Of a stretch of DNA of 64,000 nt, positions 1-50,712 are shown piece by piece. The notes under the pieces were generated by a model. That model saw only the letters and a list, made by a program, of their open reading frames with translations, ran no database searches and was not told the origin of the DNA. Within the stretch, counting starts at the first letter, position 1, and each line of letters opens with the position of its first letter. A program made the translations under genes and the position numbers. The stretch is from a bacterium. GTDB lineage: Bacteria; UBA8248; JACPRG01; G963555815. The stretch is from the NCBI GenBank assembly GCA_965261595.1, contig CBDHDG010000006.1, forward strand, positions 1,600,001 through 1,664,000, read 5' to 3'.

Positions 1-723
1 GGTCGGGGCGCCCTGGTAGGCGTCGGGCGCCCACATGTGGAAGGGGACCAGGGCGACCTTGAAGGCGAAACCGGCCGTCAAAAGGATGATGGCCAGCGTC
101 AGGATCGGGCTCCCCCCGGTGCCGGAGGCCAAGGCCTCCCGAATGCCGTCCAGGTAGAGGGTCCCGGTGTAGCCGTAGATCAACGCGATGCCGTACAGAA
201 CGATGGCCGAGCTGAAGATCCCCAGGAGGAAGTACTTGATGCCGCCCTCCTGCGACATCAGATCCCGCTTCAGGAAGCCGACGAGCAAGTACACCGGAAT
301 GGAGAGAAGCTCGAGTCCGATATAGATCGTGAGGAGGTCGTTCCCCGAGGCCAGCACCATCATGCCGATGGTCGAGAATAGGATCAGGGCGTAATACTCG
401 CCCCGGTTGATGTCCTCGATTTTGAGATAGCGGAACGAGATCAGGATCGTCAGAAACGCCACGCCCAGGAAGATGAACTTGAAGAAGGTGGAGAAATCGT
501 CCACCCGGTACATCCCCCCGAACAGCTTTACGTCCGTCCCGATCCGCCCGGCCAGAAAGACGCCCGCCACGACGAGGCCCGCCAGCGCCAGGAACCCTGA
601 GAACCCCTTCCTCTTGGGGGACAGAAAGAGGTCCACCAAAATGATCGCGCAGACGAGCACGGTCATGGCAATCTCGGGCAGAATCGGCCCGAGCTGAACC
701 TTGGGCAGAACGATGGGATCCAT
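1..723 (-). CDS. nuoN: NADH-quinone oxidoreductase subunit N (cluster A), runs off the window edge
   Basis: Own translation from ATG at 723: MDPIVLPKVQLGPILPEIAMTVLVCAIILVDLF...GEYYALILFSTIGMMVLASG...EGGIKYFLLG...FKVALVPFHMWAPDAYQGAPT; lies directly after nuoM. Confidence 0.93.
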   Translation of the reverse strand, partial: MDPIVLPKVQLGPILPEIAMTVLVCAIILVDLFLSPKRKGFSGFLALAGLVVAGVFLAGRIGTDVKLFGGMYRVDDFSTFFKFIFLGVAFLTILISFRYLKIEDINRGEYYALILFSTIGMMVLASGNDLLTIYIGLELLSIPVYLLVGFLKRDLMSQEGGIKYFLLGIFSSAIVLYGIALIYGYTGTLYLDGIREALASGTGGSPILTLAIILLTAGFAFKVALVPFHMWAPDAYQGAPT

Positions 724-726
724 GGA

Positions 727-2367
727 CTATTTTCCCGAAACGCCGCGCTTGAATTGGGACACCAGCGCCCGGACCTCTTCGGCGGACCGGGGCGGGACCT
801 TCGGCAGGACCGCCGGCCGCGCGAAGGCCTTGCCGTCGATGGGCTTGCCCGCCTTGGCCAGATTAATCTGGCGGACCAGATTGTTCACCGCGGGCTCCAG
901 GATTCGCAGATAGGGCTTCGGATAAATCCCGATCCAGAACATGAGGATGATCAGCGGCATCAGGTAGATCACCTCCCGCTTGTTCAGGTCGGCCAGGCCC
1001 TCGTTCTCGGGCTTGTCCACGCCCCCGAACATCATCCGCTGGAAGAGCCACAGCATGTAGGCCGCCCCCAGGACGATGCCGAGCACGGCGAAGGCCGCGT
1101 AGATCTTGCTCACTTGGAAGGCCCCCACCAGGATGAGGAACTCGCCCACGAACCCGTTGAGGCCCGGCAGCCCGATGGAGGAAAACATGGTGATGGCGAA
1201 GAAGACGGTGAACACGGGGATCACCTTCGCGAGGCCGCCGAAGTCGGAGATCTCCCGCGTGTGCCTGCGCTCGTAGAGGATCCCGACGATGAGGAAGAGC
1301 GCCCCCGTGGACAGCCCGTGGTTGATGTTCTGGAGCAGCGCGCCCACCAGCCCCTGGGAATTGAGTGCGAAGATGCCCAGCATGACGAAGCCGAGATGGC
1401 TCACCGAGCTGTAGGCCACGAGCTTCTTCACATCGCTCTGCGCCATGGCCACCAGGGCCCCGTAGATGATCCCGATGATGGCCAAAAGGGCCATGAACGG
1501 AACCATCGTCTCACTGGCCTTGGGCAGAAGCGGCAGGCTGAACCGGACGAAGCCATAGGTCCCCATCTTCAGGAGGACGCCGGCCAGGATGACGCTGCCC
1601 GCCGTGGGGGCCTCGACGTGGGCGTCGGGCAGCCAAGTGTGGAACGGGAACATCGGGACCTTGATGGCGAACCCAACGAAGAGCGCGAGGAAGATCCAGA
1701 ACTGGTGCTCCGCCGGAAGCCTGGGCGCCATCTTGTAGAGCTCGAGGAGGTTGAAAGTCAGCTCACCCGAGCCGTACTCCGGATTGGCGTTCAGGAAGTA
1801 CAAGGCCAGGAACCCAAGCAGGAGCAGCACGCTGCCCACCAGGGTGTAGAGGAAGAACTTGATGGCCGCGTACAGCTTGCGGGGGCCGCCCCAGATCCCG
1901 ATGAGGAAATACATCGGGACCAGCATGATCTCCCAGAAAACGTAAAAGAGGAAGAGATCCAGGGAGACGAAGACGCCCAGCATTCCGGTCTCGAGGATCA
2001 GCAGACTGACGTAATACTCCTTCTGCCGTTCCTTGACCGCTTTGTAAGAGCAAAGAATCGCGATCGAGCTCAGGAGCGTCGTCAAGACGATGAGCAGGAT
2101 GCTGATCCCGTCCACGCCGATGGAATACTTCACCCCGAGGGAGGGGATCCAGGAGTACTCCTCCACGTACTGCATCTGCACGTTCTCGGCCTCGAAGCCG
2201 GGAAGCAGCCACAGGGAGAAGCCCAACACCAGAAGCGAGACCACAAAGGCGAAGTTCCTGATGGCCCCCGTCTTGTCCCGGGGAAAGAACAGCATCATGG
2301 CCACGGCCCCCGCGAGGGGGAGGAAAACCATGTACGTCAAAATGGGAAATCCGAGAACGTTCGTCAT
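727..2367 (-). CDS. nuoM: NADH-quinone oxidoreductase subunit M (cluster A)
   Basis: 546 aa; FYVFWEIML, KVPMFPFHTWLPDAHVEAPT and GVLLKMGTYG motifs. Confidence 0.96.
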   Translation of the reverse strand: MTNVLGFPILTYMVFLPLAGAVAMMLFFPRDKTGAIRNFAFVVSLLVLGFSLWLLPGFEAENVQMQYVEEYSWIPSLGVKYSIGVDGISILLIVLTTLLSSIAILCSYKAVKERQKEYYVSLLILETGMLGVFVSLDLFLFYVFWEIMLVPMYFLIGIWGGPRKLYAAIKFFLYTLVGSVLLLLGFLALYFLNANPEYGSGELTFNLLELYKMAPRLPAEHQFWIFLALFVGFAIKVPMFPFHTWLPDAHVEAPTAGSVILAGVLLKMGTYGFVRFSLPLLPKASETMVPFMALLAIIGIIYGALVAMAQSDVKKLVAYSSVSHLGFVMLGIFALNSQGLVGALLQNINHGLSTGALFLIVGILYERRHTREISDFGGLAKVIPVFTVFFAITMFSSIGLPGLNGFVGEFLILVGAFQVSKIYAAFAVLGIVLGAAYMLWLFQRMMFGGVDKPENEGLADLNKREVIYLMPLIILMFWIGIYPKPYLRILEPAVNNLVRQINLAKAGKPIDGKAFARPAVLPKVPPRSAEEVRALVSQFKRGVSGK

Positions 2368-2455: not shown

Positions 2456-4450
2456 TTATCCGTACATCAGGTACAGGCTCACAATCACGAAGACGCCCAG
2501 GAGCATCGCCAGGGCGTAGTTCTGGACGCCCCCGGTCTGCACCCGGCGCAGCCCCCGCGCCCAATTCGTCAGAATGACCCCGACGCCGTTTACGGCGCCG
2601 TCCACCGTCTGAAGGTCAAAGATGCCGGACAGCTTGCTCAGCCAGACGGTCAGCCAGGATGTCCCGTTCACAGTCCCGTCCACGCCTTTGGCGTCCACCG
2701 TGTACAGGGCCTTCATCAGCCACATGATGGGGCGAACGATGCAGGCGTCGTAGATCTCGTCCACCCAGTACTTGTTCAGCAGCAGTTGGTAAGTCCCCTG
2801 GAACTTCTCGCTCAGCCGCTTCGGGACCTCCAGGTTTTTTGTATACATAAAGCGCGCGAGCATCCAGCCTCCGACGCCGATCGCCACCGACACCACGGCC
2901 AGGACCCAGAGAAGGGCCGTGGACGCGTGGGCCTCGCCCCCCCCCGCCGCCGTCCCGAAAACGGGGCCCAGGTAGGCGTGGAACGCGTTGTATCCGGGGA
3001 TGCCCACCCAGCCGCCCACGATCGCCAGAGCCGCCAGGATGATCAGCGGCGTCGTCATCGCCGCGGGGGACTCGTGCAAGTGATGGGTCGCCTCGGGGAC
3101 CACCCGCGACTTTCCGAAAAACGTCATGTAGATCAGCCGGAACATGTAGAAAGCCGTCATGAACGCGGCCAGAATGCCCAGAACCCAGACGAAATAGTTG
3201 CCCGACGTGAAGGCCTCGGCCAGGATCTCGTCCTTGCTGAAAAAACCGGCAAGGGGAGGAATCCCCGAGATGGCCAGCGCGCCGATGTAGAAGGTCAAGG
3301 ACGTGACGGGCAGATGCTTACGGAGCCCGCCCATGAACCGCATGTCCTGGCGGCGCCCTTCGTCCGGGTCCCCGTGCAGGGCGTGGATGACACTGCCCGA
3401 ACCCAGAAAGAGCAGTCCCTTGAAGAAGGCGTGGGTCATCAGGTGAAAGATGCCCGCCGTGAAGGCCCCCACCCCCAAGGCCAGGAACATGTAGCCCAGT
3501 TGGCTCACCGTGGAGTAGGCCAGGACGCGCTTGATGTCGTTTTGGACCAAAGCGATGCTGGCGGCGAAGATGGCCGTCAGCCCCCCGACAACGGCCACCA
3601 CCTCCATCGAGACGGGGGCCAGCAGGTACAAGGTGCTCGATCGGGCCACCATGTAGACCCCGGCCGTCACCATCGTGGCCGCGTGGATGAGCGCGCTCAC
3701 CGGCGTCGGCCCCTCCATGGCGTCGGGGAGCCAGGTGAACAGGGGGAGCTGGGCCGATTTGCCGACGGCCCCGACGAACAGGCAGAGCGTGATGAGCGTG
3801 GCCGCCGAGGCGGCGGCCGATCCGGGGCCCGCGGCGCGGGCCTGCTCAAAGACGCCCGCGTAGTCGAGCGTGCCGAACACCTGGAAGATCAGGAACACGC
3901 CGAGCAGGAAGCCGGCGTCGCCGATGCGGTTCACGATGAACGCCTTCTTCCCGGCGTCGGAGGCCGATTTCTTGTGGTACCAGAACCCGATGAGCAGATA
4001 CGAGCAGAGCCCCACGCCCTCCCAGCCGACGAACATCAGCAGGTAGTTGTTCCCCAGAATGAGGAGGAGCATGGCGAACATGAAGAGGTTGAGGTAGGTG
4101 AAAAAGCGCGAAAAGCCCGGGTCGTCGCGCATGTAGCCGGCGGAATAGACGTGGATGAGGAAACCCACCCCCGTCACGACGAACAACATGATCGAGCTGA
4201 GGGGATCGACGAGGAAGGCGATCTCCGCCCGGAATCCGGCGGCGACGACCCACTCGAACAAGCGGACCTGGATGGTTTCCCCGCCGAGGACCGTCCGGTT
4301 GAGGACGATCAGGGCGAAGAGGAGCGAGAGCCCGGTCGCGGCCAACGCCACCCAGTGGGCGCGCCGGCCCGTCCAGCGGCCGAAGAGACCGTTGATGAGC
4401 GCCCCCAGGCCGGGGAGCGCGACAATCCAAGGAACGAGCGTTTCCGCCAT
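2456..4450 (-). CDS. nuoL: NADH-quinone oxidoreductase subunit L (cluster A) with a 26-aa extension of the amphipathic helix
   Basis: 664 aa; GWEGVG, GKSAQLPLFTWLPDAMEGPTPVSALIHAATMV, HAFFK; the DxxxVDGxVNG motif occurs twice near the C-terminus. Confidence 0.96.
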   Translation of the reverse strand: MAETLVPWIVALPGLGALINGLFGRWTGRRAHWVALAATGLSLLFALIVLNRTVLGGETIQVRLFEWVVAAGFRAEIAFLVDPLSSIMLFVVTGVGFLIHVYSAGYMRDDPGFSRFFTYLNLFMFAMLLLILGNNYLLMFVGWEGVGLCSYLLIGFWYHKKSASDAGKKAFIVNRIGDAGFLLGVFLIFQVFGTLDYAGVFEQARAAGPGSAAASAATLITLCLFVGAVGKSAQLPLFTWLPDAMEGPTPVSALIHAATMVTAGVYMVARSSTLYLLAPVSMEVVAVVGGLTAIFAASIALVQNDIKRVLAYSTVSQLGYMFLALGVGAFTAGIFHLMTHAFFKGLLFLGSGSVIHALHGDPDEGRRQDMRFMGGLRKHLPVTSLTFYIGALAISGIPPLAGFFSKDEILAEAFTSGNYFVWVLGILAAFMTAFYMFRLIYMTFFGKSRVVPEATHHLHESPAAMTTPLIILAALAIVGGWVGIPGYNAFHAYLGPVFGTAAGGGEAHASTALLWVLAVVSVAIGVGGWMLARFMYTKNLEVPKRLSEKFQGTYQLLLNKYWVDEIYDACIVRPIMWLMKALYTVDAKGVDGTVNGTSWLTVWLSKLSGIFDLQTVDGAVNGVGVILTNWARGLRRVQTGGVQNYALAMLLGVFVIVSLYLMYG

Positions 4451-4460
4451 ATCTAAAGAC

Positions 4461-4763
4461 TCACCATTTCAGGATGTTGATCTCGTCCACGTTGAGCGTG
4501 GCTTTCCTGCGGTTCAGGGAGATGATGAGGGCCAGCCCGACGGCCGCTTCCACGGCGGCGACCGTGATCACGAAAATGACGAACATCTGACCCATCATGT
4601 TCCCGTGCATCTTGGCGAACGCGATGAACGTCAGGTTCACGGCGTTCAGCATGAGCTCGATGGACATGAGGATCATGATCACGTTCCGGCGCGTCAGAAC
4701 GCCGATGCCGCCGATCACGAAAACCAGCCCCGCCAGGGCCAGGTAGTATTCACCCGGGACCAC
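4461..4763 (-). CDS. nuoK: NADH-quinone oxidoreductase subunit K (cluster A)
   Basis: 100 aa; [19 protein letters not shown] and [11 protein letters not shown]. Confidence 0.95.
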
Positions 4764-4809: not shown

Positions 4810-5325
4810 TCAAATCTCCCGCTTTGCGATCACGATGGCACCGATCATCGCGGCCAGCAGCAAGAGCGACGCCACCTCGAAGGGGAACAGGAACTCGGTG
4901 TAGAGCGTCACGCCGAATGCCTCGGTGTTCCCCCCGTAGGCGTTCAGGGCGGCCTTCGCCGCTTCGGCCGTCTTGGCCGACGGGACCCAAATCCCCTTGA
5001 TGAGGATCACGAAGAACTCCGCCGCCAGCAACGCACCGATGACCCCCGCCGCCACCTTCTGCCGCTGCCATTGGCGCTCGGCCATGGATTCCCGGACATT
5101 GATCAGCATGATGACGAAGACGTAGAGCATCATGATGGCACCCGCGTAGATCAACACCTGGATGGCCGCCAGAAACTCGGCCTCAAGCATGACGTACAGG
5201 GCCGCCGCGCAGAAAAGGGTGAGCAGGAGGTAGAGGGCGGCATGGACAACGTTTCGGCGCGTGATGACCAGCAAGGAGGAGATCAGCATGCCGAGTCCGA
5301 AAATGATGAAAAACGGCCACTCCAT
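4810..5325 (-). CDS. nuoJ: NADH-quinone oxidoreductase subunit J (cluster A)
   Basis: 171 aa; AEFLAAIQVLIYAGAIMMLYVFVIML and PFEVASLLLL. Confidence 0.95.
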   Translation of the reverse strand: MEWPFFIIFGLGMLISSLLVITRRNVVHAALYLLLTLFCAAALYVMLEAEFLAAIQVLIYAGAIMMLYVFVIMLINVRESMAERQWQRQKVAAGVIGALLAAEFFVILIKGIWVPSAKTAEAAKAALNAYGGNTEAFGVTLYTEFLFPFEVASLLLLAAMIGAIVIAKREI

Positions 5326-5407
5326 CTGTCAGGGCCTTTCCTGCGTCATCGGCCAAGAATTCCCGGGGGCCTTCTCCGGCGCCCGGACGCTGAATTCTCC
5401 GAACCGG

Positions 5408-6376
5408 CTACACGAGATACATCAGAAGTCCGGTCAGGAAAATATTCGCCAGCGCGAGAGGGAACATCAACTTCCAGCCAAGCCCCATCAACTGATCGTA
5501 CCGGAGCCGCGGAAGCGTCGCCCTCAACCACATCATGAAAAACATACCGATGAACACCTTGAGAATGAACCAGTGCGCGCCGGGCGCCCCCGGCCCCAGA
5601 TAACCGCCGAAGAACACGACGGCCGCGATGGAGCAGACGACCATCATGTTGGCGTACTCCGCCAGGAAGAAAAAAGCGAACTTCATCCCGCTGTACTCCG
5701 TGTGGAACCCCGCCACCAGCTCCGTCTCGGCTTCGGGCAGATCGAAGGGGATTCGGTTCGTCTCGGCCAGTCCAGCGATAAAGAACAGCACGAAGGCCAG
5801 GGGCTGGTACACAATGAACCACGTCTCCTTCTGGGCCTCGACGATGTCCAGCATGTTCAGCGATCCGGCGAGCATCAGCGGTCCGACGAGGGCGAAACCC
5901 AGAAAGATCTCGTAGGAGATCATCTGCGCGGCGCTCCGGAATCCTCCCAGCATGGAATACTTGCTGCCCGACGCCCAACCGGCCATCACGATGCCGAAGA
6001 TGCCCAGAGACGAGACCCCCACGACGAACAGCAGTCCGATGTTGAGATTGGCGATGACAAAACCGCTCGATATGGGGATGACCGAGTAGACGACGAACGC
6101 CGGAATGAGGGCGAACAGAGGCGCCAGGATGAACACGGCCTTGTCGGCCTCCCGGGGGATGATGTCCTCTTTGAGGAACAGCTTCAGGCCGTCGGCGATG
6201 GGCTGGAGGAGGCCGTGCGGGCCGACCCGCATGGGGCCCAGCCGGACCTGCATATGGCCGATGAGCTTCCGCTCGAAATACGTCATGTAGGCCACCAGCA
6301 GGGATATCACGCCCCAGACGATGGTGATCTTGATCAGCGCGAACAGCGTTTCAAGAACCATGGTGGAAACGTACAC
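5408..6376 (-). CDS. nuoH: NADH-quinone oxidoreductase subunit H (cluster A); start may be ATG at 6361
   Basis: [42 protein letters not shown] and PRLRYDQLM. Confidence 0.95.
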
Positions 6377-6431
6377 TCCTTCACCGGGCCGAAAGCGCCG
6401 GAGGGAGGGGGGGCCGGGACAGTCCGGCCGC

Positions 6432-7571
6432 TCAGCGGTCCACTTCGCCCAGAACGATGTCGATGCTGCCGATGGCCGCGACGGCGTCCGCCACGAGCTG
6501 GTCCTTCAACAATAAAGGCAGCGTCTGCAAATTCACGAATGAAGGCGGCCGGATTCTCAGCCGGAAGGGCCGGTCCGCGCCGTCGCTGACCAGATAGTAG
6601 CCCAACTCGCCCTTCGGCCCCTCGATGCGGTGGTAGACGTCCCCTTCCTTGGGCTTCATCGTCCTGGGCACCCGGGCCATGGTCTTGCCCTTGGGCAGGT
6701 CGGCCACCGCCTGCTCGATGATGTAGCAGCTTTGGCGCATCTCCTCCAGCCGCACGAGGTAGCGGTCGTAAATGTCGCCGTTTTGTCCCACCGGAACCGT
6801 GAAATCGAAATCATCGTAGGCGGCGTAGGGCTCGGCCTTGCGGACGTCGAAGGCCACGCCGGAGGCCCGGAGGATCGGGCCGCTGGCCCCCAGGTCGATC
6901 GCGTCCTCGGCGGAAAGCGTCGCCACGCCGCGCGTGCGCGCCTTCCAGATCCGGTTCTCCGTCAACAGGTCCTCGTAATCGTACATCGCCCGGGGGAACT
7001 CGCGGACGAAGCGCTCGCAATCCAGGAAGAATTGTTGGGCCGGGTCTTCGTACACGCCGCCCACCCGGAAGCTGTGGACGGTCAGGCGGGCGCCGTAGGC
7101 GACTTCGAACAGATCGAGGATCTTCTCCCGATCCCGGAAGCAGTACAGGAACACCGTCATGGCCCCGATGTCGAGGGCATGGGTCCCGAGCCACAGCAGG
7201 TGGCTGGAAATCCGGGCGAGCTCGGCCGTAATAACCCGAATGTAATGCGCCCGAATCGGGACATCCAGCTCCAGCAGCTTTTCCACGGCCTCCACGTAAC
7301 CCAGGTTGTTGGAGGGGGAGGCGACGTAATCCGTCCGGTCGGTGTAGGGGACAAACTGGCCGTAGTTGAGGTTCTCGCCGATCTTTTCCACACCCCGGTG
7401 CAGGTAGCCGATCTCGCACTCCGTATGGCGGACGATCTCTCCGTCGAGCTGGAGGATCACCCGCAACACACCATGCGTGCTGGGGTGCTGGGGCCCCATG
7501 TTGATGACCAGATCTTCGGTCTGGGGAACGATCCGCTCGGGTTGGGGCGCGGCCTGGACCACGGATCTCAC
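6432..7571 (-). CDS. nuoD: NADH-quinone oxidoreductase subunit D (cluster A)
   Basis: [28 protein letters not shown] and C-terminal GEVDR; start placed at the GTG overlapping the nuoC stop. Confidence 0.95.
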
Positions 7572-8278
7572 TTCCTTTCCGTCATGGGGCGGCTGGAGCC
7601 CGGGATCTGGCGCTCGACCCACGTCAACCCGAAGCCGTCCCCGCGGATGGGATAATCTTTGCGGAGTGGAAAGCCTTCCCAGTCCTCCGGCAGGAGGATG
7701 CGGCGCAGGTCGGGATGCCCTTCGAACTCGATGCCGAACATGTCATAGGCTTCGCGCTCGAGCCAGTCGGCCGTCCGCCAGACTTCGACGACCGAGGGCG
7801 CCGCCTCGCCGTCCGCCAGCCGCACCTTCAACCGAAGGCGCTCGGAGCGATCCAGGGCGAACAATTGATAGACCACCTCGAAGGGTTTTTCCCGCTCCGG
7901 GTAGTGGACGCCGCAGAGGTCGGACAGATAATTGAAGCCGTGCTCGGCTTTGAGGTGCGCGCACAACGCACGAACCCGGCCGGCCGGGACGGTCATGCTC
8001 ACCTCATCGGCGCCCCCGGTGAAGGACGTCACCTCTTCGACTTCGTCCCCGAGGAACGCCCGGACGGCCTTCACGCCGGCCAGGGACTCCAGCGGGTCTT
8101 CCGGCGGCTCTTCCGGAGGGGCTCCGTCGCCCTCTCCTTCGCCGGACGCACCCGCGTCCTCGGACGGCTCGGGGCTCGCTTCGGTTTCTTCTGAGGAATC
8201 GGCGGGGGGGGGGGGCTCGTCCGACCTGTCATCCCCTTCGGGCTGATCGGTTTCCGCCGCTTGGTTCTCTTCGGTCAT
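7568..8278 (-). CDS. nuoC: NADH-quinone oxidoreductase subunit C (cluster A) with an acidic N-terminal extension
   Basis: [41 protein letters not shown]. Confidence 0.94.
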
Positions 8279-8293
8279 CGTTATCCTATGCGA

Positions 8294-8770
8294 TCACGCG
8301 CGCAGGAACTTTTCCTGCTGAATTTTCTCCTGGAGCTTCAGGACGCCCCACATCAGGGCCTCGGGCCGGGGGGGGCATCCGGAAACATAAATATCCACGG
8401 GAACAACCTGGTCCACGCCTTGAAGGGTCGAGTATGTGTTGAAAGGCCCGCCCGCCGTGGAGCAGCTTCCCATCGAGATGACCCATCGGGGCTCGGGCAT
8501 CTGGTCGTAGACCTTCCGAACCACCGGGGCCATCTTGTAAGTGACCGTGCCGGCTACGATCATCACGTCCGACTGCCGGGGCGTCGCCCGGAAGATGATC
8601 CCGAAGCGGTCGAAATCATACCGGGAGGCCCCGCTCGCCATCATCTCGATGGCGCAACAGGCCAGACCGAACGTCATGGGCCACAGGGCGGATTTTCGCG
8701 CCCAGCCAACCAGGTAGTCCAGCGTGGTCGTGAGGATGTTCTCCTGAAAACGGTGCTCGACTATACCCAT
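8294..8770 (-). CDS. nuoB: NADH-quinone oxidoreductase subunit B (cluster A)
   Basis: [13 protein letters not shown] and GCPPRPE (cluster N2 ligands). Confidence 0.96.
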
Positions 8771-9153
8771 TCCAGAGCTCCCTTCTTCCAGGCGTAGACG
8801 TATCCCACGAGCAGGATCACCAGAAAGAGCATCATCTCGACGAACCCGAACAGGCCGATGCGGTTATAGACCACGGCCCAGGGGAAGAGAAAAGCGCCCT
8901 CGACGTCGAACAACAGAAAGAGGATGGCGACGATGTAATACCGGATGGAGAAATGCTCGCCCGCCCGGACGAGCGGAGGGATGCCGCACTCATAAGGAGA
9001 GAGCTTCTCCGGATCCGGCTTTTTCGGGCGGACAAGCATCGCGATGAGCAGCGTTCCCCCGCCGAAAGCGGCCACCACCAGGATAAAGATGAAGACCGGG
9101 ATAAACGGGTGAATCGAAGTATAGTCGCTAAAGAAGCGGTTCAGAATCTCCAC
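8761..9153 (-). CDS. nuoA: NADH-quinone oxidoreductase subunit A (cluster A)
   Basis: [21 protein letters not shown] and WKKGALEW. Confidence 0.95.
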
Positions 9154-9255
9154 GCCGACAGACCCCCAACCGGACTTTCACACGCAAGACGTAAGGAAAT
9201 TCCTGAGGTGAATAGAACAGAACTTCCCTGACAACGTCGACCAAGCCTCCCCAAA

Positions 9256-9284
9256 AGTATAATCCCCCGCCCGCTCGGGTCCAA
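9256..9284 (-). promoter_or_regulatory. Putative sigma70 promoter of nuo cluster A
   Basis: TTGGAC-N17-TATACT on the minus strand between nuoN(B) and nuoA(A). Confidence 0.55.
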
Positions 9285-9312
9285 GGACATTCGCGCACTT
9301 TTTTTCACAATC

Positions 9313-10800
9313 TCAGAATCCACCCGCCGCCGCCAGCTTCGCCAGAGAAAGCGCCCCGGACGGGAAAACGCCCAGTTGCAGCGTCCCCCACACCGCGATC
9401 ACCAACCCGGCGGCCGTCAATACGCCCATCCGAAGGCGCGCGGGAGTCTCCTCCGCATCCTCGGTCCGGGACTCCCGCATGAAAATTCGCACCACCACGC
9501 CCAGGTAATAGGTCACCGCCACCACGCTGTTCAGGACCGCGATCACCACCAGCCACGTGTAGCCCGCCTCGACGGCGGCGCTGAAGATATAGACCTTTCC
9601 CATGAACCCGGCCGTCGGCGGCAAACCGGCCAGGCTGAACATGAAGAGCGCCAGAACGAGCCCCAGGACGGGCCGCCGGGATCCCAGACCGTCGTATTCG
9701 GACAACTCCAGCGTCTCCCGGCCGTCGCCGTTCGCCGCGCTCAGGGCCATGATGACGCCGAAGGCCCCGATCGTGCTCAGGGTGTACTGGAAAAGATAGA
9801 ACAACAGTCCCCCCGCGCCGGTCCGGTTCAGGGCGACCAGGGCGACGAGCAGGTATCCGGCGTGGGCGATGCTAGAGTACGCGAGCATCCGCTTGATGTT
9901 GCGCTGGGAGATGGCCGCGACGTTGCCCAGCGTCATGGTCAGAACGGCCGCCACCCAGAGGATCGCGCTCCAGTCCACGTGGAGGGCCGCGAGGGGTCCC
10001 GCGAAAACCCGGAAGAACGCCGCGAAGCCGGCGGCCTTGACGGCGGCGGCCATGAACCCGGTCACCGGGGTCGGCGCCCCTTCATAGACATCGGGCACCC
10101 ACATGTGGAACGGGACCGCCGCGACCTTGAAACCGAATCCCACCACCATCAGGCCGACGCCCGCGAGCAAAAGCCAGTCCATCCCCTCCCGGGCCCCGCC
10201 GGCCGCCAGCCTCTCGGTCAGGACGGCGTGGTCCAGGCTCCCCACGCTGCCGTAGACGAGGGCGATTCCATAAAGCAGAAATCCGGTGGCGAAGGCCCCC
10301 GTCAGGAAATACTTCATCGAGGCCTCGCTCGAGGCGGGCCGCGTCTTGAACATCCCGGCCAGGACGTAGGAGGCGATGGACATCACCTCGAGTCCCAGGA
10401 AGATGATGATCAGGTTCGTTCCCCCCGCCATCATGATCATGCCCGCGGCGGCGAACAGGAGCAGGGCATAGTACTCCCCGTTGCCGATTCCCTCCCGCGC
10501 GGCGTATTCATGGGAGAACAACAGGGTCAGACCCGTTCCCAGAACGAAGATCAGCGTGAAAGCCTGGGTGAGCCGGTCGGCGGCGAACATCCCGTTGAAG
10601 ACCCGCTGGGGCGAGTCCCAAATCCAGACGGCCGACAACGCCGCCCCCGCGAGGAACACCAGCCCGAGGCCGGCCAGCCACCCGCGGGCGTCTTTGCGGA
10701 AAATATCCACCATGAGAACCGTGATCCCACCGACGCAGAGCCAGATCAGGGGCAGGATCGCCTGTAGGTTTACATCGGGGATTTCGGGGGCCACGCTCAC
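9313..10800 (-). CDS. nuoN: NADH-quinone oxidoreductase subunit N (cluster B)
   Basis: GEYYALLLF, EASMKYF and FKVAAVPFHMWVPDVYEGAPTP; start placed at the GTG overlapping the nuoM stop. Confidence 0.95.
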   Translation of the reverse strand: MSVAPEIPDVNLQAILPLIWLCVGGITVLMVDIFRKDARGWLAGLGLVFLAGAALSAVWIWDSPQRVFNGMFAADRLTQAFTLIFVLGTGLTLLFSHEYAAREGIGNGEYYALLLFAAAGMIMMAGGTNLIIIFLGLEVMSIASYVLAGMFKTRPASSEASMKYFLTGAFATGFLLYGIALVYGSVGSLDHAVLTERLAAGGAREGMDWLLLAGVGLMVVGFGFKVAAVPFHMWVPDVYEGAPTPVTGFMAAAVKAAGFAAFFRVFAGPLAALHVDWSAILWVAAVLTMTLGNVAAISQRNIKRMLAYSSIAHAGYLLVALVALNRTGAGGLLFYLFQYTLSTIGAFGVIMALSAANGDGRETLELSEYDGLGSRRPVLGLVLALFMFSLAGLPPTAGFMGKVYIFSAAVEAGYTWLVVIAVLNSVVAVTYYLGVVVRIFMRESRTEDAEETPARLRMGVLTAAGLVIAVWGTLQLGVFPSGALSLAKLAAAGGF

Positions 10801-12350
10801 CGCCTTCCGATCAGGGCTGTAGACACGGGCATCTGCGTCAGGGCCGCGGTCCGCTCGGCCTTGGCCGCGTTCTCTCTCAGCACTCGGTCCACCGAGGCCT
10901 CCATGGAATGGAAGAAGGGTTTCGGCGCCAGGCCGATCCAGAAAATGAAGAGAACAATCGGTCCCAGGACCGCCCACTCCCGCACGCTGAGATCGGGCAG
11001 GGAGCGGTTCTCCTCGCGGGTCACCCCGCCGAAGATCATCCGCTGGACCATCCACAGCATGTACACCGCGCCCAGGATGACGCCCAGCGTCGCCCAGGCC
11101 GTCGCCCAGCGGTGGACCCGGAAGGAACCGAACAGGATGGTGAACTCGCCGACGAACCCGTTCAGTCCGGGCAAGCCGATGGAGGAGAAGGTCACAATCA
11201 GGAAGATGACCGCGTAAGCCGGAATCACCTTGGCCAGTCCGCCGTACGCTTCGATCAATCGCGTGTGCCGCCGCTCATAGATCATCCCCACCAGGAAGAA
11301 CAGGGCGCCCGTTGAAAGCCCGTGGTTCACCATCTGGAGGATGCCCCCTTCGACGCCCTGGGCGTTCATGGCGAACAGCCCCAACATCACGAACCCCAGA
11401 TGACTGACCGAGCTGTACGCAACCAGTTTCTTCACGTCCTCCTGGACGAAGGCCATCAGCGCTCCATAGAGAATGCCAAGAACGGACAGCACAACGATGA
11501 ACGGCGTGTAGTCCCGGGCCGCCAGCGGAAAGAAGGGGATGGCGAACCGGATGAACCCGTACGTCCCCATCTTCAGCAGAACCCCCGCCAGGATGACGCT
11601 CGCGGCGGTGGGGGCCTCCACGTGGGCGTCCGGCAGCCAGGTGTGAAACGGGAACATGGGGACCTTGATCGCGAAGGCCAGGAAAAACGCGCCGAACAGC
11701 CACCACTGGACATCCCCCGGGAGACCGAGGCCGTTCAGCTCCTGATAACCGAACGTCAGGACGCCCGTGCTCTTGTAATTCAGGTAAACCATCACCAGCA
11801 CCGCGACCAGCATCAAGACGCTTCCCGCCATCGTGTACAAGAAGAACTTGACGGCCGCGTAAATCCGCCGCTCGCCGCCCCAGACGCCGATCAGCAGGGC
11901 CATGGGGATCAGCATCACCTCCCAGAACACGTAGAACAGGAACATGTCCAGGGCGACGAAGACCCCCAGCATGGCCGTCTCCAGCAAAAGCATGGAAACG
12001 TAAAACCCCTTGACCCGATGCTGGATGTCTTTCCACGAGCCGAGGATCGCCAGCGGCGTCAGGAAGGCGGTCAGCAGGACCATCCACAGACTGATGCCGT
12101 CCACGCCCAACCGGTAGCCGATGCCGAAGCCCGGGATCCACGAAGCGGTCTCCGTGAACTGCATCGCGCCCACTTCGGGACGGAACGCGGCGTACATCAC
12201 CAGCGCGAGAACGAACGTGGCGATGGACACCGCGAAGGCAATCCCCTTCACCGCGGCCGGCTCCCGGCGGCTCCAGACCCCCACCAGGATCGCGCCGGCC
12301 AGGGGCAGGAACACGATCCAGCTCAACATCGGAAATCCCGGAGAATTCAT
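10797..12350 (-). CDS. nuoM: NADH-quinone oxidoreductase subunit M (cluster B)
   Basis: 517 aa; FYVFWEVML and KVPMFPFHTWLPDAHVEAPT. Confidence 0.96.
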   Translation of the reverse strand: MNSPGFPMLSWIVFLPLAGAILVGVWSRREPAAVKGIAFAVSIATFVLALVMYAAFRPEVGAMQFTETASWIPGFGIGYRLGVDGISLWMVLLTAFLTPLAILGSWKDIQHRVKGFYVSMLLLETAMLGVFVALDMFLFYVFWEVMLIPMALLIGVWGGERRIYAAVKFFLYTMAGSVLMLVAVLVMVYLNYKSTGVLTFGYQELNGLGLPGDVQWWLFGAFFLAFAIKVPMFPFHTWLPDAHVEAPTAASVILAGVLLKMGTYGFIRFAIPFFPLAARDYTPFIVVLSVLGILYGALMAFVQEDVKKLVAYSSVSHLGFVMLGLFAMNAQGVEGGILQMVNHGLSTGALFFLVGMIYERRHTRLIEAYGGLAKVIPAYAVIFLIVTFSSIGLPGLNGFVGEFTILFGSFRVHRWATAWATLGVILGAVYMLWMVQRMIFGGVTREENRSLPDLSVREWAVLGPIVLFIFWIGLAPKPFFHSMEASVDRVLRENAAKAERTAALTQMPVSTALIGRR

Positions 12351-12386
12351 TGCGTCCCGTTCATGCCCCGCCGTATCGCCGAAAAA

Positions 12387-14297
12387 TCAGCGCCAGGAAT
12401 AAAACAACGCGATGGCAGCTATCCCGGCCACCATAGACAACAGGTACGTCTTCGTATGCCCCGTCTGCAAAGCCCGAACCACGCCGGACAAATTCCGGAA
12501 GGCCCCGCCCACGCCGTTGACCAGCCCGTCCACCAGCAAGATGTCCACGCCCCTCCACAGGGCAAGCGCCGTGTTTCTCAGCGGGATGACGAACAGGCTG
12601 TCGTAGAGCTCGTCCACGTAGAATTTGTTCAGAAGAAGCCGGTGCAACGCGGGGAAGCGGTCCGCCGCCATCTTCGCCAATTCCGGCCGGGCCAGGTGCA
12701 TCCGGTGAGCCAGGAAGATTCCAAAACCCGCCACCGCCAGAGAAACGGCCATCAGGCCAACCTCCAGGCCCACACCTCCGTGGGCCTCCACCGATCCGGC
12801 GGCCCCCGCGAAGACCGGCGCCAGGAAGTCCCCGAGGACGTCGGCCCCCTGAATGATGGGGATGCCCACCCATCCGCCGATGACGGCCAGGACCCCGAGG
12901 ACCACCAGCGGCAGGGTCATGACAGCGGGCGACTCGTGCGGCTGGGGCGCGGCCGCGCCCCCGTAGCGGAAAGCGCCGTGGAAGGTCAGGAAGATGCACC
13001 GGAACATATAGTAGGCCGTCAGTCCCGCGACGAGGACGCCCAGCCCCCAGAACACGGGGCGGCCGCCCGCCCAGGCCTTCCAGAGGATTGCGTCCTTGCT
13101 GAAGAAACCCGCCAGGGGGAAGATCCCCGCCAGCGCCAACCCGCCGATCACAAACGTCCAATGCGTCGTCGGCATATGGCGTCTGAGATCGCCCATCTTG
13201 CGGATGTCCTGCTCCCCGCCCATGGCGTGGATGACGCTGCCGGACCCCAGGAAGAGAAGGGCCTTGAAGAAGGCGTGCATGATGAGATGGAAGATCGCCG
13301 CGCCGAACGCCCCCAGGCCGCAGGCCAGGAACATGTAACCGAGCTGGCTGATCGTCGAGTAAGCGAGCACCCGCTTGATGTCGGTCTGGACCAGGGCGAT
13401 CAGGGCGGCCATCAGCGCCGTCGCCATCCCGACGGCCGCCACCGTGAGGAGGACGCCGGGCGCCAACAGAAACAGGACGTGGGTGCGGGCGACCAGGTAG
13501 ACGCCGGCGGTCACCATCGTGGCGGCGTGAATGAGCGCGCTGACCGGAGTCGGTCCCTCCATGGCGTCCGGGAGCCAGGTGTAGAGGGGAATTTGCGCCG
13601 ACTTGCCCGTGGCCCCCAGAAAGAGGAGGAGCGTGATGGCCGTCACAACCGCGCCTCCGGCGGAGAGCTTCTCCGGCGCGGCGGCGAACACCCCCGCGTA
13701 ATCCAGCGTCCCGAACGTCGAGAAAATCAGGAACACCGCGATGGCGAACCCGAAATCACCGATCCGGTTGACGATGAAGGCCTTCTTCCCGGCGTCGGTC
13801 GCGGACTTCTTCTCGAACCAGAAACCGATGAGCAGGTAGGAGCAAAGCCCCACGCCCTCCCAGCCGACAAACAGGACCAGGAAATTATCGGCCAGAACCA
13901 GGATCAACATCGCGAAGAGAAACAGGTTCAGATAAGCGAAATACCGGGTCCGCCCCGGATCTTCGCGCATGTAGCCGATGGAATACACGTGAATGATGAA
14001 TCCGACGCCCGTCACCACGAGGCTCATCACCGCCGAGAGGGGATCGAAAAGGAAGGACGCCCGGACGACAAAATCCCCGGCGGAGATCCAGGTGTAGAGG
14101 GTCTGGTGAACGGACCTGGCCGAAACCTCCAGGCCGAGGAGCGAGATGAACGCCCAGACGGACGCGGCGAAGCTCAGGCCGACCGCGGCGCAGGCGATGA
14201 GACCGGCGTTGCGCGCTCCCGTCCACCGGCCGAACACGCCGTTCATCACCGCCCCCACGGCGGGAAACAGAAGAATCCACCAGAGATTTTCGAGCAT
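12387..14297 (-). CDS. nuoL: NADH-quinone oxidoreductase subunit L (cluster B), standard length
   Basis: 636 aa; GKSAQIPLYTWLPDAMEGPTP; a single VDGLVNG motif in the C-terminal helix. Confidence 0.96.
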   Translation of the reverse strand: MLENLWWILLFPAVGAVMNGVFGRWTGARNAGLIACAAVGLSFAASVWAFISLLGLEVSARSVHQTLYTWISAGDFVVRASFLFDPLSAVMSLVVTGVGFIIHVYSIGYMREDPGRTRYFAYLNLFLFAMLILVLADNFLVLFVGWEGVGLCSYLLIGFWFEKKSATDAGKKAFIVNRIGDFGFAIAVFLIFSTFGTLDYAGVFAAAPEKLSAGGAVVTAITLLLFLGATGKSAQIPLYTWLPDAMEGPTPVSALIHAATMVTAGVYLVARTHVLFLLAPGVLLTVAAVGMATALMAALIALVQTDIKRVLAYSTISQLGYMFLACGLGAFGAAIFHLIMHAFFKALLFLGSGSVIHAMGGEQDIRKMGDLRRHMPTTHWTFVIGGLALAGIFPLAGFFSKDAILWKAWAGGRPVFWGLGVLVAGLTAYYMFRCIFLTFHGAFRYGGAAAPQPHESPAVMTLPLVVLGVLAVIGGWVGIPIIQGADVLGDFLAPVFAGAAGSVEAHGGVGLEVGLMAVSLAVAGFGIFLAHRMHLARPELAKMAADRFPALHRLLLNKFYVDELYDSLFVIPLRNTALALWRGVDILLVDGLVNGVGGAFRNLSGVVRALQTGHTKTYLLSMVAGIAAIALFYSWR

Positions 14298-14301
14298 GGC
14301 T

Positions 14302-14604
14302 TTACATTCTGAGCAGGTTGACTTCGTCCACGTCCACGGACTGCTTGTGGCGATAGATCGAAATGATGATGACGAGTCCCACAGCCGCCTCGGCCGCGGC
14401 CACCGTCATGACGAAGAAGACCAGAATCTGCCCATCCAACGTTTGAAGGAACCGCGAAAACGCGACGAGCGTCAGGTTCGCGGCGTTCAGCATCAACTCG
14501 ATGGACATGAAGATTACGATGACGTTTCGGCGCAAAAGCACACCGATGACGCCCAGGGTGAACAGGACGGCGCTGAGAATCAGATAGTGCGACAGCGGAA
14601 CCAA
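14302..14604 (-). CDS. nuoK: NADH-quinone oxidoreductase subunit K (cluster B)
   Basis: [19 protein letters not shown] and [12 protein letters not shown] start behind GAGGAAG. Confidence 0.94.
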
Positions 14605-14652
14605 ATCACTTCCTCTCCGCGGTGACGCCGCGTTTCTCACAAAGATGTCGGC

Positions 14653-15162
14653 TCATTCGCTCCGCCTCGCCAGGACCACCGCTCCGATGATGGCCACGAA
14701 CAGCAGGATCGACGTAATCTCGAAGGGCAGCAGGTAATCGGTGAACAGGAGCCGGCCGATCGCTTTGACGTTCCCCACCTCGGCCAACCGCTCCGGCGAA
14801 AACGGGCCGACAGGCGCCGGCTGCGGAATCCCGCGCGTCCGGACGAAGAGGAAGACGAGGAGACCCAGGGCCATCAGCAAGCCCGCGACCTTCTGGCCCT
14901 TGAGCTTAATCGGCGTCCTCTTCTCGGCCCCCACGTTCAACAACATGATGACGAACAGAAACAGGACCATGATGGCCCCCGCGTAAACCAACACCTGGAT
15001 GGCCGCGATGAATTCCGCGTGCAGGAGCAAAAAGATGCAGGCCAGGCTGAACAACGTCCCGATGAGGTAGAGGGCGCTGTAGACGGCGTTCCTCGAAGAG
15101 ATCACCATCAGCGCCGTCCCCACGGCCGCGACCGCAAAAATGTAGAACAGGACCGCCGGCAT
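14653..15162 (-). CDS. nuoJ: NADH-quinone oxidoreductase subunit J (cluster B)
   Basis: AEFIAAIQVLVYAGAIMVLFLFVIMLL and YLLPFEITS. Confidence 0.95.
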   Translation of the reverse strand: MPAVLFYIFAVAAVGTALMVISSRNAVYSALYLIGTLFSLACIFLLLHAEFIAAIQVLVYAGAIMVLFLFVIMLLNVGAEKRTPIKLKGQKVAGLLMALGLLVFLFVRTRGIPQPAPVGPFSPERLAEVGNVKAIGRLLFTDYLLPFEITSILLFVAIIGAVVLARRSE

Positions 15163-15164
15163 GC

Positions 15165-15683
15165 TTATCCCCGCCCTCCGCCGCTTGGGACCCGCCTGCC
15201 GCCGATCGGCACCGTGACTTCCCGAGGCTCCGGCTCGGCGGGTCGTCCCTCGACCGGCGGAACGAGCAGCCTCTCCTTCCCGTAGAGCATGGATTCCCGG
15301 TCATAGTCGCAAAATTCGTAACCCTCGCCCAGGACGATGGCATCCACCGGGCAGGCCTCTTCGCACATTCCGCAATAGATGCAGCGGAGCTCGTTGATCT
15401 CGTAGATCGATGCGTACCGCTCCCCCGGAGAGACACGTTGGTCGGGCGTGTTTTCCTCCGATTCTATATAAATGCAGTCCACCGGGCAGGCCGCCTGACA
15501 GAGTTTGCAGCCAATGCAGCGCTCCATCCCCGCGTAGGGGCCGTCTTCATATCGCATCAGCTTGTGAAGACCCCGGTAGCCCGGCACCATCGGAACCCGC
15601 TCTTCGGGGTATTGGACGGTGATCGGCCTCTTGAACAAATGCCGGAACGTCAGCGCGAGGCCTTTTCCCAACTCGGTAATCAT
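15165..15683 (-). CDS. nuoI: NADH-quinone oxidoreductase subunit I (cluster B)
   Basis: TVQYPEE and two CxxCxxCxxxCP motifs (CIGCKLCQAACP, CIYCGMCEEACP). Confidence 0.96.
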   Translation of the reverse strand: MITELGKGLALTFRHLFKRPITVQYPEERVPMVPGYRGLHKLMRYEDGPYAGMERCIGCKLCQAACPVDCIYIESEENTPDQRVSPGERYASIYEINELRCIYCGMCEEACPVDAIVLGEGYEFCDYDRESMLYGKERLLVPPVEGRPAEPEPREVTVPIGGRRVPSGGGRG

Positions 15684-15711: not shown

Positions 15712-16695
15712 TCAGCCCCAGAACGCCAGGACGCCGGCCGTGATCAGGATATTGGCGAGGGCCAGCGGGAGAAGGATCTTCCAGCCGAAGTCCATGAGCT
15801 GATCGTACCGGATCCGGGGAAACGTCGCCCGAACCCAGATGAACACGAACAGGAAGAAAAACGTCTTGAGGAGGAACCAGACAACGGGCGGCAGCAGCGG
15901 TCCCTGCCAACCGCCCAAAAAGAGCGTCGAGGCCAGAGCCGAGATCGTGATCATTCCCGCATACTCGCTCATGAAGAACATGGCGAACTTCATGCTGCTG
16001 TACTCGGTGTGGTATCCGGCCACCAGCTCGGTCTCGGCCTCCGGCAAGTCGAACGGGGACCGGTTGACCTCCGCGACCCCCGCGACCATGAACAGCGCGA
16101 ACCCGAGCGGCTGAAGAAGGATGAACGGAACCTTGGCCTGGGCTTCAACGATGTCCACCAAACTCAGGGACCCGGTCAGCATGATCACCCCCACGACCGA
16201 AAGGCCCAGCGTGAGTTCGTAACTGATCATCTGCGCCGAGGCCCGAAGCCCCCCCAGCAGGGAATATTTGCTGTTGGACGACCACCCCGCCATCACGAAC
16301 CCGAGCACCCCCAGGGACGACAGCGCGAAGAAGTACAAAATCCCGATGTTCACGTCGGCGATCACCAAGTCCACCGAGACGCCGAGGACGGTCACCGAGT
16401 CGCCGAACGGGATGATGGCGAACGAGGCGATGGCCGGGATCAGGGTCATCATCGGGGCCGCCACGAAAACCCACCGGTTGGCCTCGCGGGGGATCACGTC
16501 TTCCTTGAACATGAGCTTGATCCCGTCGGCGATGGGCTGAAGCAGGCCGTGAAATCCCACCCGCATCGGGCCCAAGCGGACCTGAATCCGCCCCATGAGC
16601 TTCCGCTCCATATAGGTCATGTAGGCCACAACCAAAAGGAGGATGTTGAAGACGATTACGATCTTCACCACCGTCGCCAGCACAAAGGAGATCAT
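15712..16695 (-). CDS. nuoH: NADH-quinone oxidoreductase subunit H (cluster B)
   Basis: ERKLMGRIQVRLGP and [19 protein letters not shown] at 16695 overlaps the nuoG stop. Confidence 0.95.
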   Translation of the reverse strand: MISFVLATVVKIVIVFNILLLVVAYMTYMERKLMGRIQVRLGPMRVGFHGLLQPIADGIKLMFKEDVIPREANRWVFVAAPMMTLIPAIASFAIIPFGDSVTVLGVSVDLVIADVNIGILYFFALSSLGVLGFVMAGWSSNSKYSLLGGLRASAQMISYELTLGLSVVGVIMLTGSLSLVDIVEAQAKVPFILLQPLGFALFMVAGVAEVNRSPFDLPEAETELVAGYHTEYSSMKFAMFFMSEYAGMITISALASTLFLGGWQGPLLPPVVWFLLKTFFFLFVFIWVRATFPRIRYDQLMDFGWKILLPLALANILITAGVLAFWG

Positions 16696-19250: not shown

Positions 19251-19309
19251 GAATTCCCTACCTCTTGATTTCGAAAAGGGGCGGTGGCTTGCCTGCCCGC
19301 GCCTTTCTT

Positions 19310-32639: not shown

Positions 32640-33735
32640 TGTATGGGTTCAAGACATATGAGACACCGGGGCCGTTTTTTTGAATGTCTCCAGAACCTGG
32701 GCGGGCGTCAGGTAGTCCAGGGCCCAGTGGGGTCGAATGTGGTTATAGACTTGCTCCCACTCGCGAAGGCGGACGTTGAGCGAGGCCACCGTCCAGGGGA
32801 GTTCGTACACCTCGTAGAACTCCTCCGTATGGGTCCTGTTGGCTCGCTCCACACGGCCGTTGAGCTTGGGCGAGCGGGGCGGCAGCTCAAAGAGCAAAAT
32901 CTCCCGCTCCGCGCACGCGCCTCGAACACCGCCCGGAACTCCGAGCCCCCGTCCACCTGAATCGCCCGCAGCGGGAACGGAGCGCGCGCCTGAAGGGTGT
33001 CCAAAAACCGCCGGGCGCAAAGGGCCGTGGCGCACGAGAAGACCTCCATCACGTCCCAGCGCGAGACCATGTCCCGGGCGGTGAATTGCTTCAACCTCAC
33101 CCCGGCAAGGGGGGAAAGCTCGAGGGTGTCCACCTGGACCAGGTCTCCGGGAAGGCCGGGCACATAGCCCTTGGGCTTGCGCGTGGCGTAAGGCCGCCGC
33201 GCCCGACGCCGCTTCGCGCTCACCACCTTGCCCCTCGGCTCGACCAGCAGTCGCCGGCGCTTGAGATCGGCCAGGATGCGGCCCACCGTCGAGACCGAGG
33301 TCACCAACCCCTCGCGTCGAAGCAGGACCGCCAGCTTGGCCTTTCCCCACCGGGGGTACTGCTCCCGAAGCTGCAAGACCGCCTTCACCAGCTCTGGCGA
33401 CCACGTGGGCTGCCTCACCCGGCGCGGCCGGCGCGTGCGCTCCTGCAGGGTCGGCAGGTCTCGGGGGTCAAACCGCTTCCGCCAGCGGTACAGCGTGGCC
33501 CGGCTCACCCCAAATGTGCTGCAAACCAATTTCGCATTCCCGCTCTCCCGCCAAAGGCTCAGGGCGCGAAGACGAGCCCGGCCCTCGGGGGACAACTCCA
33601 CCGCCCCGTAGCCTCCTGCGCGCAGGAGGCTACGGGGCCACCCAAACACTTGCATCCAGGGACCTCCTCTCTCGTGGCCCCTGGCACTCTACTCCCTAAC
33701 CAAGGAGATGTCTCACATCTAGCTGAACCTATACA
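32640..33735 (-). mobile_element. IS481-family insertion sequence
   Basis: Imperfect terminal inverted repeats TGTATGGGTTCA...TGAGAC and GTCTCA...TGAACCTATACA flanking an rve-type transposase. Confidence 0.82.
32649..33655 (-). pseudogene. IS481-family transposase with a frameshift near 32919
   Basis: HTH (GVSRATLYRW), LVQVDT and IQVDGGSEF in one frame; PPRSPKLNGRVERANRT...YNHIRPHWAL continues in another frame. Confidence 0.82.
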
Positions 33736-45185: not shown

Positions 45186-47312
<2,127 letters not shown>

Positions 47313-50680: not shown

Positions 50681-50712
50681 CGAATCCTTTCCTCGCGCCG
50701 GAAGGGCGTCTC

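Follow-up and report, generated by a model that had tools for sequence, protein, structure and literature searches.

A NuoL with a doubled lateral-helix module beside a single nuoM in a tandem complex I gene cluster that lacks nuoI

Does a lengthened NuoL encoded beside a single nuoM mark a complex I with an additional pump? The form known as 2M complex I is defined by a second NuoM together with a lengthened NuoL (PMC6606698, PMC12342949, PMC11636273 and PMC7117926, all citing Chadwick et al. 2018), and its NuoL carries an insertion of 26 residues in the lateral helix HL (Yu et al. 2022, PMC9040806). The matter bears on energetics, as complex I owes its H+/e- ratio to how many pump subunits it has, and this ratio decides whether the enzyme is able to drive reverse electron flow to low-potential acceptors, the role proposed for the 2M form. 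The locus analyzed here lies at the left end of a 64-kb stretch of DNA, the window, and combines a long-helix NuoL with one nuoM in a cluster that is itself the second of two.

The left 24 kb of the window hold two complex I gene sets head to tail on the minus strand (Table 1). The upstream set, cluster B, is a complete 14-gene nuo set, and cluster A behind it reads nuoA-B-C-D-H-J-K-L-M-N by Pfam and NCBIfam assignment. Cluster A has a single nuoM and is without nuoE, nuoF, nuoG and nuoI by Pfam and by tblastn of the window, in which the one nuoI belongs to cluster B. The initial annotation had counted one nuoM in cluster A from gaps of 88 and 3 bp along nuoL-nuoM-nuoN, and the coordinates bear this out (2368-2455 between nuoL and nuoM, 724-726 between nuoM and nuoN). 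A tblastn search with all nuo proteins against the window returned six antiporter-like genes, namely L, M and N twice each, and no further one in the 64 kb. Inspection of the nuoL-nuoM and nuoH-nuoJ intergenic DNA of cluster A turned up nothing telling. The junction between the two clusters measures 159 bp (9154-9312; its counterpart in the related locus L012 is 5294-5495) and has, in the window, one weak promoter-like site and no terminator-like site.

Table 1. Features of the two nuo gene clusters in the window (A and B in parentheses denote the cluster).
Feature	Position	Strand	Remarks
nuoN(A)	1..723	-	first 241 codons; cut by window end
nuoM(A)	727..2367	-	546 aa, sole nuoM of cluster A; E146, K236, K267, E409 conserved
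nuoL(A)	2456..4450	-	664 aa, long lateral helix; Pfam Proton_antipo_M/N; TIGR01974; AF2 pLDDT 94.4
TM16 anchor helix of NuoL(A), residues 642-663	2462..2527	-	AF2 model
Helix HL of NuoL(A), residues 560-637	2540..2773	-	one continuous 78-residue helix, DSSP of AF2 model
HL module 2, residues 612-637	2540..2617	-	T615-D617 aligned with E. coli NuoL P564-N566 kink
HL module 1, residues 586-611	2618..2695	-	extra 26-residue unit, motif D..VDGxVNG
nuoK(A)	4461-4763	-	Pfam, NCBIfam
nuoJ(A)	4810-5325	-	Pfam, NCBIfam
nuoH-nuoJ gap of cluster A, 82 bp	5326..5407	-	expected nuoI place; no nuoI
nuoH(A)	5408-6376	-	Pfam, NCBIfam
nuoD(A)	6432-7622	-	Pfam, NCBIfam
nuoC(A)	7568-8278	-	Pfam, NCBIfam
nuoB(A)	8294-8770	-	Pfam, NCBIfam
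nuoA(A)	8761-9153	-	Pfam, NCBIfam
nuoN(B)	9313 to about 10790	-	cluster B
nuoM(B)	10797..12350	-	517 aa, 56% identity with NuoM(A); candidate second M in trans
nuoL(B)	12387..14297	-	636 aa, one HL module; internal control
nuoK(B)	14302-14640	-	cluster B
nuoJ(B)	14653-15162	-	cluster B
nuoI(B)	15165..15683	-	window's only nuoI
nuoH(B)	15712-17244	-	cluster B
nuoG(B)	16692-19544	-	cluster B
nuoF(B)	19310-20587	-	cluster B
nuoE(B)	20584-21153	-	cluster B
nuoD(B)	21150-22526	-	cluster B
nuoC(B)	22378-23076	-	cluster B
nuoB(B)	23200-23679	-	cluster B
nuoA(B)	about 23689-24027	-	cluster B

The C-terminal part of NuoL(A) contains a repeated motif. Copy 1, DAKGVDGTVNG (residues 586-596, nt 2663-2695), and copy 2, DLQTVDGAVNG (residues 612-622, nt 2585-2617), lie exactly 26 aa or 78 nt apart within nt 2585-2695, and NuoL(B) has one copy, DILLVDGLVNG, both as first described. 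Taken by itself the repeat is within chance, since shuffling the NuoL(A) protein 200 times gave a self-match of 7 of 11 residues in 46 cases; its reality rests on comparison. The two 78-nt units have just 27 of 78 bases, and 7 of 26 residues, in common and are therefore no recent duplication. In solved NuoL/NdhF chains the single C-terminal motif aligns to both copies, and the label of insert could be given to either module. NuoL(A) belongs to the NuoL family, scoring 775.2 bits against TIGR01974 (curated cut-off 407.5) and 750.3 bits against NF005141 (cut-off 556). Its TIGR01974 alignment ends at residue 601, profile position 596 of 630, and that of NuoL(B) reaches the end.

The comparison was drawn from a search of 1.84 billion cluster representatives, in which the query was aligned with 149 of the best 150 (150 rows) and the HL span was measured from the DExY aspartate to the QTG glycine (D564-G640). 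Spans of 50-55 aa were found in 103 of the 150 rows, two of them apparently frameshifted, and spans of 77-78 aa in 34, the query included. The remaining rows have spans of 103-105 aa (three), 89 aa (two, one frameshifted) or 81 aa (three, with another insert at another place), or a span that is absent or aberrant (five). As the spans cluster at about 52, 77-78 and 103-105 aa, HL grows in 26-residue steps. Among the 38 rows that are longer by one such step, 31 could be stacked without gaps, and these have FD..VVDGxVNG in both modules with similar information content. Among the 120 best relatives of the C-terminal part (90% clustering), the span is 77-79 in 96 and 52-53 in 15, nine being not scorable. 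Relatives, where labeled, come from Nitrospinota, NC10/Methylomirabilales and Tectomicrobia MAGs. The C-terminal 149 aa of NuoL(A) also matched nine plasmid records, all of single-module NuoL by match length. The insert of NuoL(A) agrees in length (26 aa) and position with that of 2M NuoL, as the initial annotation had proposed (PMC9040806, PMC6606698), and NuoL(A) is thus a true representative of the long-helix NuoL type known from 2M enzymes.

Two further forms of HL occur among the relatives. Three proteins (P0009, P0078 and P0107) have three HL modules, with a span of 103-105 and an addition of 52 aa that would fit two extra subunit widths. Another three (P0079, P0106 and P0125) have a different insert of ~29 aa (DGRFWHDWFH...) earlier in HL, which from its sequence looks like an independent lengthening of the helix.

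AlphaFold2 monomer models were built from 150-row alignments, that of NuoL(A) being rich in long-helix rows, and reached mean pLDDT values of 94.4 for NuoL(A) and 95.4 for NuoL(B). The models are alike up to residue 558, beyond which DSSP assigns to NuoL(A) a continuous helix of 78 residues (560-637) followed by TM16 (642-663); in NuoL(B) a helix of 54 residues (558-611) is followed by TM16 at 615-635. Over residues 601-650 the pLDDT of the NuoL(A) monomer drops to 75-88. The insert is predicted to form a straight extra helix rather than a loop, and this predicted helicity joins conservation and quantised length as established features of the insert. The core fold of NuoL(A) matches solved NuoL chains with TM values of 0.75-0.86. 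Foldseek rmsd to E. coli 7p64_L is 11.9 Å for the model of NuoL(A) and 6.9 Å for that of NuoL(B), and to 3rko_B 10.1 Å and 6.7 Å, respectively; the higher values of NuoL(A) fit a displaced TM16 in the model, a point of little weight as the NuoL(B) model is also far off. No four-pump enzyme was among the 50 best PDB matches of the NuoL(A) model in Foldseek.

The position of the modules relative to NuoM can be gauged from E. coli. When the tail of E. coli K-12 NuoL (from its RefSeq record) is aligned with NuoL(A), P564-N566 falls on T615-D617 of the latter, within the motif. This E. coli segment is a kink that comes closest to, and is in contact with, NuoM, and P552 is located between L and M (Belevich et al. 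2011, PMC3274701). As we read the same work, its Y590 truncation lies about the start of TM16, and the stretch from the NuoM contact to TM16 would then be about 26 residues (564 to about 590), or one module. Helix length matters in E. coli, where 6-7 additional residues placed between L and M left no more than a fifth or a quarter of the pumping; elsewhere in HL, insertions were tolerated (PMC3274701).

To place the long helix in genomic context, contigs were scanned and the best 80 of 573 relatives were taken as loci. Among these 80 no locus has two nuoM, and the long helix is found in four (L012, L028, L059 and L011), with 72 lacking it and four not scorable. In L012, L028 and L059 NuoL is 59-61% identical to NuoL(A) and has an insert of identical length. 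All three loci share the synteny of the window, with A-B-C-D-H-J-K-L-M-N placed behind the end of a B-type cluster, and the tandem of B then A is kept in all four genomes of the clade. The ten-gene set of cluster A is conserved in the three relatives at 44-73% identity, and nuoI is absent between nuoH and nuoJ in each of them as well (9118-9159 in L012). A second nuoM right after nuoN(A), which the initial annotation had named as fatal to its proposal, is unlikely: permissive tblastn detected no antiporter-like gene after nuoN(A) up to the locus ends, ~7 kb downstream, in any of the three. The sole extra match downstream is a 54-codon stretch in L028, and in L012 opposite-strand genes directly follow nuoN(A).

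The fourth long-helix locus, L011 from a Terriglobia MAG, reads C-D-H-I-J-K-L-M-N (5007-15266) with one nuoM, and tblastn found nothing antiporter-like within 10 kb on either side. All four long-helix loci with context, from two lineages, have one nuoM nearby. In L011 the gene order begins with nuoC, nuoA and nuoB being absent from the 5 kb upstream, and nuoI is separated from nuoJ by a 131-codon ORF (8521-8916) that has no match in Pfam.

A FastTree phylogeny of 160 NuoL rows, from which the helix columns were removed and eight broken rows left out, groups the window with L012, L028 and L059 (support 99). On this tree the long-helix state is scattered, requiring at least 18 changes, six of them forced by well-supported branches, with deep branches weak. 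Chadwick et al. (2018) are said to claim repeated origins of 2M complex I in their title. A scattered long-helix state fits such a history, though the deep branches are weak.

Cluster A looks functional by the residues that it retains. NuoB(A) keeps four cysteines in a CCxxE...C...CP pattern, which we take to be the N2 cysteines, and in NuoD(A) the motifs HPSTHG and DY are likewise present. NuoM(A) has retained E146, K236, K267 and E409, and NuoL(A), aligned with 149 representatives, has every invariant family column; the charged residues kept in the two proteins are presumably the key ones. Lacking nuoI, cluster A cannot work alone, and NuoI and any N-module are needed from elsewhere. In all four genomes cluster B lies ahead of cluster A, and it is the obvious source of these subunits. 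The need for NuoI in trans makes a second NuoM in trans less far-fetched, and a separate NuoF has been proposed to serve a 2M cluster in Nitrospira (PMC6606698).

Some peculiarities of the other subunits may be recorded. NuoD(A) is of a short type, matching NF008974 end to end with 504.3 bits, just below the cut-off of 522; it is without 25 residues that are present in NuoD(B) inside the 49-kDa domain, a deletion common to L012. The C-terminal tail of NuoM(A) (727-830, minus strand) is ~30 residues longer than in the L012 orthologue and NuoM(B), and the NuoM of L011 has a long tail as well.

Set against 2M complex I, cluster A has the same 26-residue lengthening of HL at the same place but is missing the second nuoM, the defining gene of that form, and is without nuoI besides. 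The 2M form of Nitrospira clade 3 resembles cluster A in that N-module genes are missing and partners are needed from elsewhere. In Chloroflexi, M1 and M2 of the 2M enzyme form separate NuoM clades and nuoBCDI are located separately (PMC7117926), and N. moscoviensis has non-operonal nuoM and nuoL (PMC6606698). For a long helix combined with a single nuoM there is precedent in Ca. Manganitrophaceae, whose Complex_I_1 and Complex_I_2 have the HL insertion in NuoL and one nuoM per cluster, as in cluster A; Yu et al. left both readings open for these, extra pumps already or a transition (PMC9040806). Those two clusters are described as canonical in gene content and order, whereas cluster A is without nuoE, nuoF, nuoG and nuoI and lies in tandem behind a full cluster.

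The canonical 14-subunit Nuo, represented by cluster B and E. coli, consists of the same subunit families as cluster A but has one HL module against two in NuoL(A), with 54 versus 78 helical residues in the AF2 models of B and A. The 11-subunit complex I-like enzymes without N-module do include nuoI, unlike cluster A, which therefore falls outside that group. The green complex I of rhizobia and Complex_I_3 of Ca. Manganitrophus also add pump subunits, and the MrpD2 of Complex_I_3 has an HL extension (PMC9040806). In these two, MrpD-like subunits replace NuoL, and none is found in this window. Our literature search found no relevant report of nuoI-less clusters in tandem behind a full cluster, and none on the frequency of the long helix in this neighborhood of NuoL; for a long-helix NuoL with a single nuoM it found only PMC9040806. 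The contention of the initial annotation that surveys counting nuoM would miss such complexes is fair, but the pattern itself had not gone unnoticed, Yu et al. (2022) having reported it (PMC9040806).

Given the above, HL of NuoL(A) may be described as two 26-residue modules instead of one, each with an FD..VVDGxVNG kink motif, which would move the TM16 anchor ~39 Å (26 x 1.5 Å), about one antiporter-subunit width, away from the NuoL core. Such a helix would be built to pass four, not three, antiporter-like subunits, and the place of the fourth would be taken by a NuoM-type subunit for which cluster A has no second gene. Candidates are NuoM(B) from the complete cluster directly upstream, NuoM(A) itself in two copies, or a paralogue encoded at an unlinked site; supply of subunits in trans would be needed anyway by a cluster without nuoI, nuoE, nuoF and nuoG. 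A fourth antiporter-like subunit in the cluster-A enzyme is in our view the most economical reading, if one held at a little under even confidence, because the extension is real, conserved and modular and duplicates the NuoM-contacting element. Against it stands the single nuoM of every long-helix locus inspected (4/4). The cryptic 2M complex suggested in the initial annotation is thus partly supported: its premises on helix length and gene count hold, and the conclusion is plausible. The more specific proposal, a complex with the four pumps of the 2M form whose operon has no second nuoM of its own, is rather doubtful, whether one NuoM were to occupy two adjacent positions or a hybrid were to take NuoM, NuoI and the N-module from the neighboring operon. 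Two copies of NuoM(A) are disfavored because in known 2M enzymes the two M subunits come from genes that have diverged from each other (PMC7117926).

Nearly as likely as a fourth subunit is an enzyme with three pumps, L-M-N, and a long clamp, in which the extra module would either bulge or bring the TM16 anchor inward, to that side of NuoN where NuoK/J/A lie; it may be in transition toward or away from the 2M form and still partly constrained. The one nuoM of the window cluster and of the four long-helix loci agrees with this, Yu et al. (2022) raised a transition for single-nuoM clusters (PMC9040806), and several HL insertions are tolerated in E. coli (PMC3274701). Moreover, with at least 18 gains and losses of the insert on the tree of 160 rows, six of them forced, the helix state changes easily. 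However, a strict length of 26 residues and a kink motif equally conserved in both modules are unexpected for a spacer or a relic, the forms with 52 additional residues show unit modularity, and the module equals the E. coli spacing from NuoM contact to TM16 (residues 564 to about 590; PMC3274701). It is improbable that the enzyme is an ordinary 2M form whose genes are split, its dedicated second nuoM lying just beyond the left end of the window or unlinked. The window is cut inside nuoN(A), and nuo genes are often dispersed, as in L011, which runs from nuoC, and in the Chloroflexi (PMC7117926) and N. moscoviensis (PMC6606698) cases, but downstream of nuoN(A) the three syntenic relatives have genes on the opposite strand and no antiporter-like match, and the 64 kb hold no further antiporter-like gene. 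That cluster A is a decaying duplicate making no working enzyme, its long helix without present function, is very unlikely in spite of the missing nuoI, nuoE, nuoF and nuoG: all ten genes are intact (nuoN being seen for its first 241 codons), the NuoB(A) cysteines, NuoD(A) motifs and NuoM(A) charged residues are kept, and the same ten-gene set persists at 44-73% identity in three other genomes.

Should a long-helix NuoL alone mark four pumps, the trait would be far commoner than operon surveys suggest (34 of 150 representatives; 96 of the 120 closest C-terminal relatives). With four pumps attained in the absence of a second nuoM in the operon, per-operon counts of nuoM would understate high-stoichiometry complex I in lineages labeled Nitrospinota, NC10 and Tectomicrobia. 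Hybrid assembly from two operons, if true, would be a new principle for complex I. If the enzyme has three pumps, some other explanation is required for the strictly conserved extra module, and the length of the helix is no safe marker of the 2M form.

The window region around the two clusters is dense in bioenergetic genes. Divergent from cluster B on the plus strand (24384-28965) lie a NuoE-NuoF fusion of 574 aa and then a protein of 929 aa whose N-terminus is NuoG-like and which has molybdopterin oxidoreductase domains and resembles a formate dehydrogenase. About 9 kb from cluster B, a minus-strand gene (32708-33655) encodes the transposase-type helix-turn-helix domains HTH_32 and HTH_Tnp_1. 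Further along the minus strand, an F-type ATP synthase alpha-like gene occurs together with V/A-type ATPase A, B and I genes (45186-46988, 49283-52497 and 55145-57205).
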